A program made the position numbers. This document shows, piece after piece, positions 48,001 to 51,000 of a stretch of 64,000 bases of DNA (positions within the stretch are counted from its first letter, which is position 1; each line of letters starts with the position of its first letter). Source of the stretch: an uncultured Pseudomonadota bacterium (GTDB lineage Bacteria > Babelota > Babeliae > Babelales > JAUPTZ01); NCBI GenBank assembly GCA_964429275.1, contig CAYSBJ010000001.1, positions 265,776 through 329,775 of the forward strand, in the 5' to 3' direction.

Positions 48001-51000
48001 AACACCAGAAAATATCTTAGTGGTGCCGCGGCAGCTCTTGATGACTCGTGGCCTGTTGGCTCAGACACCAGGGTTTGTTGTGGCAGGTGCCACTCTAGGG
48101 CAAGAAATTGAAGAGTTAGTAAGAACCGGCGGGCAGTTCTTGCCGCGACCGGATATGGAAGAAGATCCATCATATAAGCAAATTATTCCGTATACCGTTT
48201 TTGTCCACAATCGCCAGGTGTTTGTGATGCAGCGAGGTCGCGGGGCAGGGGAACAGCGGTTGGCAGAAAAATATACTCTTGGCATTGGCGGGCATGTCCG
48301 GCAGAAAGATCTGACGACTGGCGGGCTTGCCGAATGGGGACGTCGTGAATTTGAAGAAGAAATTGCCTACGCCGGCCGATACTGTGGGCTGAGCCTGTTT
48401 GGCTTGGTTAACGATGATTCTAATGCGGTGGGCCAGGTGCACCTAGGCGCCGTATTTGTGCTTGAGGGAACGACTGATGTCATTAAAGTCCGGTCGGAGC
48501 TCAAATCGGGTATGCTGATGGACCGTGAGGCCTGTTTGCTGGTGCGGGGACAGATGGAGACGTGGAGTCAGTACGTGCTTGATGCGTTGATCATAGCTAA
48601 CATTATTTAGCTCTGAGAGCGAAGCAGAGCGCGAGAGCAAGGCTTTTTTGATGTACTAACCAATTCAAAGGTTATTTTGCGGCGCTCAAAAGGCCCCCCG
48701 CTCGGCTTCCGACTTTTTTGTCTCGCTTAGACAGCCCGTTTGGGGCTGCTCGACAAAAACCGTAGTCGCCTCGAAGGGGCCATTTTCCCTTTGCAAACCT
48801 GACTTGGAAAGTATCTAGATTTTGTATCTGCGAGAAATCGGGCCGCAGTTGCTCCAAGGAGCGAGTTCGGCTTTTTGCGTAGCAAAAACGCATGTTTGAG
48901 CGGGAGGGGTAATTCTGGACGAGCGCAGCAGCCTAGTGCCTGACTTGCTCCCATAGCTTATATAAATTATTGAGATCAAGCTGCTGAGCCCGCAAGCGCA
49001 ACAACTCTTCTGGCAAGTGCTGCCATTTATATTTCGTACGACGCAAATTATTCCCGAGCGTTTGCCGTGGGCTGACAAAGCAGGCACGAATGAAGGCCCA
49101 GAAGGCCGTCGGGTCAGTGATCGGCATTAAAGCCGTTCGTGGCTGAAATCGTACTAATCTGCTCATCACCTTGGGCGCCGGCACAAAGAAGTGCGGCGGA
49201 ACCCGTTCATATGCAGTGAAGTTAAAATAATATTGTAGGTAGATAGAAACGGCCCCATAGCGGCGTCCGCTTGTGTGGGTAACCCGTTCAGCTGCTTCTT
49301 CTTGAATCATGACCATGCCGTCATCAAAAAGGGTGTGGTTTTGGGAAAATTGCTCAAAAAGTGGAAAAGTGATGACGTACGGCAGATTTGCTAAGAGAAC
49401 CAATCGTTCCCCCTCTTTTTTAAGGCTGGCAAAGTCAAATTGCAGGGCATCGACGTTGTGGATGGTGAGGCGCGGGTCATGAATAGTGTCTGCTAGGCGC
49501 TCAGCCCAGTCCGGGTCAATTTCAATGACATGGAGCGCCTTGCACTTGCTGTCTAGAATGGCGCGGGTCAAAATGCCGTCACCACAGCCAATTTCTACGA
49601 CTGTCGTATCAGGAGTAATGGTAATGGCAGAGAGCATAGTGTTGATTGGCTCTTGCGAGATTAAAAAGTTTTGGCCAAGGTGTCGCTTTTGACGCGGGAG
49701 TGCTTGGGCTGCTTGTGCTTGAGGACGAAACTTGTTTTTATATTGAGAACGATGGGCCACGTGTTTTACCTATATGCTGTTGTTTGCTATGAAAATGAGG
49801 GTATAGTATACTCGATTCTCTAAAAATTATGTTCTTTGATGTTTTTGTGGGGGCGTTTTTGGTTTCGACGTGTTACATACGGCTATGAACGCATGCCGAG
49901 TTTGGCTCCGGAACTCGTAAAAAAAAGGTGCAAATCAATAAATGCAGAATCTAACGGTTCTGTGAATACATCTTACAACTTGATGAATGCTTACAAGCCT
50001 GTGACCCTTGGTCACGTGTTTGCTGGCTTTAACGCTGCTGGCAGCTTTGCTGCTGTTGCTGCGTAGTCGTCAACTAGTTGATGCTATTCATCTTGTAAAT
50101 AGGGCCCCGTCTATCTGGCTCTCTTACTCGTATTACCCATGATAGAATCGTGTCACAAGGTTTTTTAGTTGTGTACTGACGCGATATACAAAACTAACCC
50201 GTCTTCGTGGCACTGTCTGCGATGCTTTGAAGATGTGGTAAAAATCGCAGTCCAGCATGGAGTTTGCTTGTAGTTACGTGTGATGCGGACATGGGTTCAA
50301 CTCCCATCGCCTCCACCACTCGCCTTCGCACACGCTGCGTGCGACAAAGCGCACGAGGTGTGACTACGGCATAGCGGGGCCTTCAAAGGCACCACAAGCC
50401 GTAGTATCACCGTCAGTGTGTAACGCAGCCCGCTAGGGCAAGTGCGATGCGAGTGTCACGCCATAGTCCCCGTAAGGGCGACGGCGGACTGGCAGGCAAA
50501 ATTACCTCTAGGTTCTGACCCGCCGGGTCTTACTCTCTAGGCCTCTCTAGCCAAAAAACATCCTTTATTCGGGAATCTCATGAAAAAAATCAAACTTTCT
50601 ACCATCCTTACTCTTTCCTTTTCTCTTCTTCTCCTTGTTGCATCTGCGAATCCTTTCGAAGGCATTTTACGGACTGCGCGTGAAGAACGGGCAGCGCTGA
50701 CTAGTCCAAGCACCTTTGCGCCTGGATTTAGCCTGGGAAGTTCATTTTCATATACAAAAAAACGCATAGGCCAAAGCGGAATTCCAATAGCCGCTTCAGT
50801 TGGCACCACCGTGGCTCTTTCGCTTCTTTTTGAGCGATTTGCTAAAACCGAGTCTCGCACTCGTGCCAAGAAAATGGCAGTGTTATCATACCTTTTAGCT
50901 GCGGTCTATGGATCTCAATTGCGTCAGCGTGGTGAGCAATACAATAATCTTTCACTAACTGACCCAATGCTTTTTAACCGCCTTCTGCTTGTTTTTGGCA

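Follow-up and report, generated by a model that had tools for sequence, protein, structure and literature searches.

In Escherichia coli, the ssrA tag comprises 10 codons plus one alanine. Gur and Sauer, in PNAS in 2008, are said to have found that the long ssrA tag of Mycoplasma and Mesoplasma is recognised by Lon. The 27-residue tag of Mycoplasma pneumoniae is described as uncommonly long and as having evolved to suit Lon (PMC8403727), and another paper prints the range of tmRNA tags as '8 to 35 aa' (PMC11431127). The Chromulinavorax paper merely lists a tmRNA as present, and our literature search, outside which lay bioRxiv supplements and subscription journals, returned nothing on tag length in Dependentiae/TM6 and nothing on transmembrane or tail-anchor-like tmRNA tags.

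The tmRNA studied here, from a genome of the order Babelales, resembles the E. coli ssrA type in the following ways: it is a one-piece molecule with a tRNA-like domain that carries a G3-U pair and a CCA end; it possesses pseudoknot 1; a U(-5)A(-4) dinucleotide precedes a GCA resume codon; the tag end is Ala-rich and non-polar; the stop codon is located at a hairpin; and SmpB is encoded in the genome. In contrast to E. coli ssrA, it has 40 tag codons instead of 10 and a message part with four hairpins, and the usual tag handlers ClpXP, ClpAP and SspB were not found in its genome. With Mycoplasma it shares host dependence, a reduced genome in which ClpXP was not found, the presence of Lon and FtsH, and a tag far longer than that of E. 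coli. It differs from Mycoplasma in that the tags of its genus (40-49 residues) are half as long again as the 27-residue tag, that there are three Lon paralogues instead of one, that long and short tags coexist in the order under the same protease set, and that degradation of the tag by Lon is here a prediction. As the phyla differ, any likeness to the Mycoplasma tag would be convergent. We consider it probable that this locus specifies a putative degron directed to Lon and/or FtsH, which is carried on the hairpin-rich, extended message of an otherwise ordinary tmRNA.

The tmRNA gene and its presence in RNA libraries

A preliminary description of this DNA had reported a 470-nt tmRNA on the + strand with an Rfam score of 123 bits, and ARAGORN and Rfam indeed agree on a full-length one-piece tmRNA (ssrA) at positions 49849-50318 (+) of the window, which is the whole stretch of 64,000 nucleotides that was analysed. 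The RF00023 match (E value 4.7e-49) spans model positions 1-374 of 374, and its score clears the gathering threshold of 47 bits over the full model. According to the verbose output of ARAGORN, the 5' half of the tRNA-like domain corresponds to nt 1-28 (49849-49876, +), and the 3' half with the CCA end to nt 432-470 (50280-50318, +). In the acceptor stem, as read from the sequence, GGGGGCG pairs with CGCCUCC, with a G3-U wobble, and is followed by ACCA. The G3-U pair is the identity element recognised by AlaRS, and it confers alanine identity.

A promoter-like site (TTGCTA, 17 nt, TATACT; 49784-49812, +) precedes the mature 5' end of the tmRNA by 37 nt. The consensus scan returned this one site for 1.2 expected, so that alone it is not significant; the promoter-like block is kept in 5/5 genomes of the genus. 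SmpB is encoded elsewhere in the genome (PF01668, 186 bits; G000:C1:169661-170089), the assembly of which (G000) is 97.95% complete in 8 contigs. No repeat of the tmRNA 3' end, i.e. no integration scar, was found within the 64 kb window.

The tmRNA is present in RNA libraries: four metatranscriptome runs, each from a different study, yield contigs over positions 49862-50318, with nothing in 49700-49855 or 50324-50450 and, in one run, a run of A right after 50318. Such contigs indicate that the RNA is present but reveal neither the ends of the transcript nor its translation, and carry-over of DNA is possible. They contain no insertions or deletions, and within the tag they differ by the in-frame substitutions N15A (as in genome G001), V38A and A39V only.

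The resume codon and the tag reading frame

The preliminary description had placed the resume codon at GCA, nt 96 of the tmRNA (49944-49946), and had read from it a frame of 40 residues up to the stop codon. Both assignments agree with what we found. First, in the Rfam alignment this GCA stands opposite the consensus resume codon. Second, when 140 tmRNAs of the order (this one and 139 others; 135 of the 140 are from outside the genus) are aligned with MAFFT, it falls in one clean resume-codon column, around which A occurs at -4 in 138/140 tmRNAs, U at -5 in 120/140 and G at +1 in 139/140. Third, U(-5)A(-4) and GCA together occupy nt 91-98, and their spacing to pseudoknot 1 is the same in 140/140 aligned tmRNAs. 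The U(-5)A(-4) pair (49939-49940, +) is equivalent to the frame-setting nucleotides U85/A86 of E. coli, where the frame is determined chiefly by the -4 adenine (A86), according to PMC2481249.

Translation of 49944-50066 yields the 40-residue peptide AESNGSVNTSYNLMNAYKPVTLGHVFAGFNAAGSFAAVAA (49944-50063, +), which has the C-terminus AAVAA (..GSFAAVAA) and is followed by a TAG stop codon (50064-50066, +), the homologous stop codon being TAA in the remaining members of the genus. The tag has a non-polar, Ala-rich end and a moderately hydrophobic body with Phe and Tyr. The Ala-rich non-polar end and the stop codon at a hairpin are what is looked for in a tmRNA tag; the frame of 40 codons, however, is not short. 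Together, the alignments and the translation support a standard one-piece tmRNA with a predicted resume codon at GCA 49944 and a putative 40-codon tag frame.

The long frame is conserved in the genus, as had been claimed for its five species. The tags measure 42, 40, 40, 42 and 49 residues, they are open to AA and a stop codon in 5/5 genomes, and in these five genomes they begin with AES(N/H/T)(G/D)S and end with A(V/Y/A)AA. No part of the genus tmRNAs has diverged more than the tag region, and every length change in it is in frame, also as claimed before, including a 21-nt (7-codon) tandem duplication in the tag of G003; the +1 and +2 frames contain 2-4 stops each across the same region. In shuffled versions of a single sequence an equally long open frame arises with P 0.09-0.18 per species (9-18% of shuffles), and what weighs against chance is that four diverged lineages keep the frame through in-frame length changes, with stops in the +1 and +2 frames. 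Eight further environmental variants have tags of 40-46 residues, which follow the common pattern AES.dSvnv..lLMnaYk.v...h..G..SfA.AvAA; as these came to light through ORF calls, the openness of their frames partly reflects the way they were found. All 13 known genus-type variants carry a long tag, none having shrunk to a short one. The pairwise dN/dS values of the genus tags (0.24-0.83) point to weak selection on the tag peptide, and we rejected them as a proof of coding, since they are weak and confounded by RNA structure.

Proteases and the probable fate of tagged proteins

The protease inventory is in line with the preliminary description. ClpP was found neither in this genome nor in the five other genomes of its family, and searches of this genome returned no ClpX above the cut-off, no HslV and no SspB. 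Lon_C occurs in three copies, along with a single FtsH and a single S41 protease of the Prc/Tsp type; of the ATP-dependent proteases searched for, none other than Lon and FtsH was found. The Mycoplasma-type combination of absent ClpXP and present Lon is thereby found in a genome that is 97.95% complete. From this inventory, the protease acting on the tag is most likely Lon and/or FtsH.

We propose the following sequence of events. The tmRNA, charged with alanine and accompanied by SmpB, would enter the stalled ribosome; translation would resume at GCA 49944, adding 40 encoded residues (41 with the alanine borne by the tmRNA), and would terminate at TAG 50064; the appended tag would then operate as a degron, most likely for Lon and/or FtsH, as has been argued for the 27-residue Mycoplasma tag. 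We infer that the 40-codon frame is translated as a whole; the length of the tag may have a function in itself. Besides Mycoplasma, and independently of it, this locus would offer another natural system in which to follow the fate of tagged proteins in cells devoid of ClpXP.

Two simple causes of the tag length were rejected. Regarding the loss of ClpP, 149 of the 151 genomes of the order yielded no match to this protease, or weak partial ones, whatever their tag length, and the other two yielded strong matches; the weak partial matches (20/151 genomes) are in frames of 256-546 residues, which appear to be other peptidases of the same fold. Because ClpP is likewise missing alongside many tags of 7-15 residues, its absence cannot account for the long ones. 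Nor is a long tag needed for life without ClpXP, as 96 of the 140 tmRNAs of this ClpP-less order have tags of 7-20 residues. Regarding extra Lon copies, Lon_C is counted three times in the five genomes of the genus and four to six times in four genomes of family f17; it is also counted three times in three f2 genomes and in G014, all of which are short-tagged, so that extra copies, which we retain as a lead, are not an exclusive correlate of long tags. One of the Lon proteins is specific to the genus: it has 1126 residues, begins with a hydrophobic leader, lacks the substrate-binding N domain and contains two AAA+ modules. This two-AAA+ Lon occurs in full length in the genus only, and forms with both modules were found in G021, which has a long tag, and in G014, which has a 12-residue tag.

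Hairpins in the message part

The ~85 extra nucleotides of this tmRNA lie wholly between the resume and stop codons, and RNAalifold, applied to the five related sequences of the genus, folds them into four small hairpins. H1 (8 bp; 49944-49963, +) holds the resume codon in its 5' arm, with all 40 cells paired and 2 pairs varying on one side. H2 (GUGACC/GGUCAC; 50001-50015, +), inside the tag frame, sits beneath the conserved peptide motif V-T-x-G-H, and 2/6 of its pairs change on both sides and still pair. The terminator scan had picked it up as a terminator-like hairpin at 50000-50016, which we rejected as a terminator because it is inside the tag frame and is H2. H3 (+) pairs 50021-50026 with 50038-50043, and H4 (+) pairs 50044-50046 and 50049-50053 with 50058-50062 and 50065-50067; together, 6/14 of their pairs change on both sides. 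H4 has a U-U mismatch in the present genome, and the A and the G of the tag stop codon belong to its 3' strand. An alternative hairpin (50065-50085) has the stop codon at its foot. A helix 5 at the stop codon was dropped, since single-sequence folds differ among the members, and the alignment-based H4 was kept.

The hairpins of the tag frame have 92.9% of their cells paired, versus 84.6% in shuffles, and 0/500 shuffles reach that value, while the number of pairs with changes on both sides (eight) was equalled in 2/500 shuffles; as the structure was derived from the same five related sequences, this shuffle control is inflated. It is worth noting that the two best-conserved stretches of the tag, AES..S and V-T-x-G-H, lie on RNA hairpins with covariation, so that the conservation of the peptide may stem from that of the RNA. 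The preliminary description had put forward the AES..S start as evidence of coding. The motif is indeed kept, but it overlaps the 8-bp hairpin that contains the resume codon and is not independent evidence that the peptide is under selection.

These observations bear on an alternative that we hold to be possible though rather doubtful, namely that the tag was lengthened by an insertion acting at the RNA level. The extra hairpins would be read through, the ~28 extra residues would be a passenger spacer, and the frame would stay open only to reach the C-terminal degron, its length drifting in frame. The four hairpins with their pairing statistics and the coincidence of the conserved peptide motifs with H1 and H2 are consistent with this view, as are the dN/dS values of up to 0.83, the spread of 40-49 residues within one genus, the fresh 7-codon duplication of G003, the repeated AMF unit in the tag of G046, and the fact that short tags are enough elsewhere in the order. 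It is harder to reconcile with the long tags kept by 13/13 genus-type variants and with the conservation of L-M-N-A-Y-K and S-F-A, which are outside the hairpins, and the structure on which it relies comes from five related sequences with an inflated control.

Tag lengths across the order

The preliminary description had contrasted the tag with those of nine other Babelales (7-35 residues), a sample that proved too small: the tags of the 135 tmRNAs from outside the genus range from 7 to 46 residues, and 20 of them exceed 35 residues. In total, 25/140 tmRNAs, from at least five families, have tags of more than 35 residues. The claim of exceptional length is thus upheld in one respect, 40 residues being above the printed range, and not in the other, the genus being no isolated outlier. 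As for that range, the figure of about 8-35 residues given in the preliminary description agrees with the one in the passage of PMC11431127 on tag length; the 40-49 residues of the genus exceed it, whereas its tags conform to the general rules in position, start and end. The printed range may partly reflect the software, ARAGORN missing tags of more than 35 residues. Tags of 40-49 residues on a hairpin-folded message widen the design space of the trans-translation tag beyond the printed 8-35.

Tags of related and of different construction occur in other families. Two genomes of another family have tags of the type PSF(G/A)GS..F..AA, which are related to those of the genus. Moreover, 20/140 tmRNAs, from four families, encode a hydrophobic helix of 17-20 residues followed by RRR(E/K)D(E/D) or RRKQ and by a short tail ending in Ala/Phe. 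In these sister families, the rescue tag is possibly also a membrane-targeting signal, an idea that we did not find in the literature searched.

We tentatively put forward a reading in three parts, which is rather unlikely to hold as a whole, in which over-long tags would be an innovation that recurs across this order of intracellular parasites and has been overlooked because ARAGORN fails above ~33-35 residues. First, the helix and arginine tags (20/140) would be a built-in membrane anchor pinning rescued products, including truncated secretory effectors, the tail of which would be cytoplasmic and within reach of FtsH/Lon. Second, the 40-49-residue tags of the genus and the PSF(G/A)GS..F..AA tags would form another class. 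Third, the latter class and the extra Lon paralogues found in particular lineages, among them the 1126-residue Lon, would have evolved together.

It seems improbable that the hydrophobic C-terminal half of the genus tags is itself a membrane-seeking segment, leading towards FtsH or the leader-bearing Lon, and not a soluble Lon degron. The 20/140 sister-family tags made of a hydrophobic helix and a basic cluster offer a precedent, the last ~20 residues are the most hydrophobic part of the genus tags, and the genus-specific 1126-residue Lon begins with a hydrophobic leader. Yet the genus tags have no basic cluster, and their Kyte-Doolittle maxima over 19 residues (1.28-1.48 in the five tags) are below the classical 1.6, for which reason we rejected them as transmembrane helices.

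The peptide predicted by ARAGORN and the overlapping open reading frame

ARAGORN reports, in place of the 40-residue tag, a 20-residue peptide DAIHLV... (nt 232-297; 50080-50145, +), which the preliminary description rightly discarded: in verbose mode the program states 'Tag not identified', the peptide being a fallback, and the stretch is downstream of the real stop codon, on a part that Rfam aligns to pseudoknot 2. Across the order, ARAGORN, independently of the alignment, finds the tag of the resume column in 98/115 tmRNAs with tags of up to 35 residues (the longest correct one has 33 residues) and in 0/25 tmRNAs with longer tags. This standard annotation tool thus fails systematically on over-long tags, the frames of which gene callers then label as hypothetical proteins. 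An alignment rule, i.e. U(-5)A(-4) and GCA at about nt 90-99, finds the tag in every case in which ARAGORN gives 'Tag not identified'.

It is very improbable that translation resumes further downstream, the real tag being short and nt 96-180 an untranslated spacer. ARAGORN does place in-frame downstream starts in L001 (nt 182) and L004 (nt 207), with peptides of 13 and 5 residues, respectively, and an open frame of 40 codons is, by itself, not unlikely. Against this, U(-5)A(-4) and GCA stand at nt 91-98 with the spacing found in 140/140 tmRNAs, no U(-5)A(-4) motif precedes the downstream starts, and the picks of ARAGORN vary among close relatives and are a fallback in the present tmRNA. In addition, four diverged lineages keep the would-be spacer open and alter its length by multiples of three.

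The overlapping protein-coding call (49839-50066, +; 75 aa from ATG 49839 or 76 aa from TTG 49836) is, as had been recognised, the tag frame taken for a gene. It is scarcely credible that the call denotes a true gene for a small protein, overlapping the tmRNA or standing in its place. In favour of such a gene are nine database entries from gene finders, the presence of an ATG and a frame open from the tmRNA 5' end in 5/5 genus members. Against it, codons 1-35 of the call coincide with the acceptor stem, D-loop analogue and pseudoknot 1 of the 123-bit RNA (i.e. the tRNA-like domain and pseudoknot 1), a Pfam search with it returned no family, L001 has ATA in place of the ATG, its N-terminal half is no better conserved than the RNA (the two being equal), and, a weak point, the RNA contigs begin at 49862 or later, without the ATG. 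The same artefact occurs nine times in the protein database, one entry being named 'hypothetical protein'.

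The tmRNA and its 40-codon tag frame

A single tmRNA was called by ARAGORN at window 49849-50318 (+), and the Rfam tmRNA model matched the same 470 bases from end to end (123 bits for a gathering score of 47; E 4.7e-49; model positions 1-374), which bears out the preliminary description of a genuine tmRNA at this site. Read from the sequence, the acceptor stem is GGGGGCG/CGCCUCC, which includes the G3-U pair, and ACCA comes after it. An SmpB gene (186 bits) occurs elsewhere in the genome (G000).

The Rfam consensus resume codon aligns to GCA at 49944-49946, i.e., nt 96 of the RNA. 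We searched 151 genomes of the order Babelales and found a tmRNA in 140 of them; after the removal of two pieces truncated at contig ends (L166 and L167), 140 tmRNA sequences from 138 genomes were compared. Their first 125 nt aligned with one clean column, AAUAA(A/G)U then GCA, with G at +1 in 139 sequences, U at −1 in 138, A at −4 in 138 and U at −5 in 120. In E. coli the equivalents of −5 and −4 are U85 and A86, the latter being the main frame determinant according to the passage concerned of PMC2481249. From 49944, 40 codons are open (AESNGSVNTSYNLMNAYKPVTLGHVFAGFNAAGSFAAVAA), followed by the TAG stop at 50064-50066, and 41 residues would be appended, including the alanine carried by the tmRNA. 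Both the resume codon and the 40-residue frame had been put forward earlier, and the Rfam codon, the order-wide column and the translation all agree with them. Support is good for the identity of the RNA, for its resume codon and for the frame of 40 codons, and all three are very probably correct.

Two mis-annotations of the locus had also been suspected, and rightly so. First, the ARAGORN peptide DAIHLV... (nt 232-297; window 50080-50145) lies 3' of the true stop codon, on a stretch that Rfam aligns to pseudoknot 2, and the verbose output marks it 'Tag not identified'. Second, the protein call corresponds to an ORF (49836/49839-50066), without a Pfam family, that arises when the tag frame is followed backwards, across pseudoknot 1 and then the tRNA-like domain, until the first start codon is reached. 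The ATG of this false ORF is ATA in one member of the genus, and the artefact accounts for nine entries in a large protein database.

Public RNA data cover the locus. Among 23 listed runs, six RNA runs contain part of the stretch, and four of these (from four studies) were compared over 49700-50450. They yielded contigs of 415 nt (49920-50311), 413 nt (49919-50318), 230 nt (49920-50149) and 311 nt (50005-50315), plus a piece of 88 nt (49862-49949), with zero depth in the bins before 49856 and after 50323 in this interval. The contigs showed no insertions or deletions. Where they differ within the tag, the changes are substitutions that keep the frame: AAT becomes GCT at 49986-7 (N15A, as in the relative G001), and one run has V38A and A39V besides. 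The same run has an A stretch directly after 50318. These contigs, which do not define transcript ends, hint at a discrete stable RNA.

Conservation of the long tag in the genus

The tmRNA is present in all five genomes of the genus (122-123 bits), and translation from the homologous codon gave tags of 42, 40, 40, 42 and 49 residues, as the preliminary description had held for the genus. Because the five RNAs are nearly identical elsewhere, the tag frame is their diverged part; all its length differences are in frame, and the +1 and +2 frames contain 2-4 stops each across the tag stretch. Shuffling one sequence leaves a frame open over this length in 9-18% of trials, and therefore the weight rests on the four diverged lineages jointly. 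Eight more environmental variants have tags of 40-46 residues; they were found via the false ORF, so that the openness of their frames is partly due to the mode of discovery. The pattern common to the variants is AES.dSvnv..lLMnaYk.v...h..G..SfA.AvAA. The pairwise dN/dS values in the genus (0.24-0.83) indicate weak constraint on the tag.

In G003 (locus L005), a 21-nt tandem duplication (AIAPSFG twice) produced the 49-residue tag. Likewise, repeated AMF units lengthened a tag to 46 residues in another relative (G046; L119).

RNAalifold, run on the five genus sequences, predicted that the message folds into four hairpins from resume codon to stop codon: H1 (49944-49951 with 49956-49963), which contains the resume codon; H2 (50001-50006 with 50010-50015); H3 (50021-50026 with 50038-50043); and H4, which reaches as far as the stop codon and takes in its A and G. 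The hairpin cells are paired in 92.9% of cases versus 84.6% in shuffles, none of 500 shuffles reaching 92.9%. Furthermore, 8 of the 28 pairs are altered on both sides yet still paired (matched by 2 of 500 shuffles), and slid partners gave 25-56% pairing. The control is a generous one, as the five related sequences are also those from which the structure was derived. Since H1 and H2 underlie the peptide stretches that are conserved best (AES..S and V-T-x-G-H), the conservation of these stretches cannot be attributed solely to the peptide.

Tag lengths across the order

Read from the common column, the tags of the order span 7-49 residues. The range of 7-35 residues first described from nine other Babelales does not hold generally: 25 of the 140 tags, in several families, exceed 35 residues, and the smaller range was thus a sampling effect. 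Four families have long tags as a rule, namely f1, with this genus (40-49 residues, 5/5), f6 (at least 33 residues in 12/13), f17 (at least 33 in 7/7) and f16 (at least 28 in 5/6), and some members of f3 have them too (at least 31 in 6/16).

ARAGORN recovered 98 of the 115 column-based tags that have up to 35 residues, and the longest one that it recovered has 33 residues. It recovered none of the 25 longer ones, for which it reported a different peptide (11 cases) or did not call the tmRNA (14 cases). In the passages concerned, the tag range is quoted as '8 to 35 aa' (PMC11431127) and the 27-residue tag of M. pneumoniae is termed unusually long (PMC8403727). The printed 35-residue ceiling may be partly a software limit. 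For specialists, the interest is that the genus tags exceed the length range quoted in print, that they expose a blind spot of the annotation tool, and that they drew attention to the helix-plus-arginine tags seen in sister families.

Among the 55 tags of at least 19 residues, the Kyte-Doolittle mean over 19 residues is 1.6 or higher in 22, and 20 of these have a basic cluster directly after the hydrophobic stretch, e.g., ..FRRREDEYSSLSVA or ..PLRRKQFAAA. Judged by their sequence, these helix-plus-basic tags look like a C-terminal membrane anchor inside a rescue tag. Within f6 the median dN/dS is 0.7, and therefore the sequence character is kept, not the exact residues. No paper on helix-plus-arginine tags was found in those portions of the literature that our searches reached. 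The genus-type tags have values of 1.28-1.48, without a basic cluster, and resemble two f17 tags with a common PSF(G/A)GS..F..AA.

The helix-type tags (20/140) begin with a short polar segment, which leads into a hydrophobic stretch of 17-20 residues (mean 1.6-2.4); then come a basic cluster (RRRED.., RRKDE.., RRKQ or PKKR) and a tail of 3-10 residues that ends in FA, VA, AF or VL. Examples are the loci L134, L140, L119, L090 and L130 (f6); L113, L133, L162, L138 and L139 (f3); L079, L105 and L151 (f17); and L161 (f19).

Two relatives have two tmRNAs. In G053, two full-length genes lie 2 kb apart (L077, C1:795232-795599; L102, C1:797383-797822; both on the minus strand) and differ in their tags (13 and 33 residues). 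In G041, two tmRNAs on separate contigs have near-identical 17-residue tags.

Proteases and the meaning of the tag

In G000, ClpP, HslV and SspB were not found, and nothing scored above the ClpX cut-off (best 27 bits for 370.75). The genome has one FtsH, one S41 protease and three Lon_C copies, the same inventory as that reported previously (the S41 enzyme being the Prc/Tsp-type protease). This set of proteases, the non-polar C-terminus that is canonical for such tags and the precedent of the long Mycoplasma tag make us lean towards the tag being a degron for Lon and/or FtsH.

Strong ClpP matches occur in 2 of the 151 genomes of the order (one with a 20-residue tag, the other with no tmRNA found), weak partial matches in 20 and none in 129, so that the loss of ClpP is common to short-tag and long-tag lineages. 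Lon_C is present in 150/151 genomes, usually in two copies; all five genus genomes have three, as do several short-tag genomes, and four f17 genomes have between four and six. Of the Lon proteins of G000, two are of the ordinary kind, having 821 and 786 residues and the N domain that binds substrates. The third, of 1126 residues, is encoded outside the window (C3:27373-30750 (−) = L173:3871-7251 (−)) and adjoins the 786-residue Lon; it comprises an N-terminal hydrophobic leader and two AAA+ modules followed by Lon_C, without the LON substrate-binding domain. Only in the genus does this two-AAA+ Lon occur at full length; matches that span both AAA+ modules are present in G021 (40-residue tag; two copies, within a cluster of Lon genes) and in G014 (12-residue tag). 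A link between it and the long tag is a lead rather than a result.

As for the length itself, the tag may offer a recognition surface, in keeping with the persistence of at least 40 residues in 13/13 known variants and with the conserved positions outside the hairpins. Alternatively, the length may be that of a passenger spacer carried by the RNA hairpins; the weak constraint seen in dN/dS, the duplications that keep the frame and the short tags of other members of the order point this way.

Flanks of the tmRNA gene

The neighbour genes are ordinary: a KsgA-type rRNA dimethylase (Pfam RrnaAD, 159 bits) on the minus strand upstream, and a 200-residue ORF without a Pfam family downstream. A promoter-like TTGCTA-17-TATACT block, kept in 5/5 genus genomes, lies 37 nt upstream of the mature 5' end. 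The 65 nt upstream of the tmRNA (window 49784-49848; same place in the relatives' loci L001, L002, L004 and L005), hexamers included, are conserved in all five genomes, and the downstream flank shows no conservation across them.

Directly 3' of the tmRNA lies an element of ~165 nt (50325-50490) that is rich in GC (about 62%) and folds strongly, on which no Rfam family reached its gathering score in window 49000-51200 and which is missing at this place in G001, the closest relative. Eight more full or partial copies (71-95% identity) occur in G000, one at window 26012-26155. At least two copies lie directly 3' of tRNA-like matches (C1:291787-291930 after C1:291661-291750; C2:59813-59982 after C2:59989-60065), and the element may represent a small repeat, either mobile or terminator-like, that is associated with tRNA and tmRNA genes.
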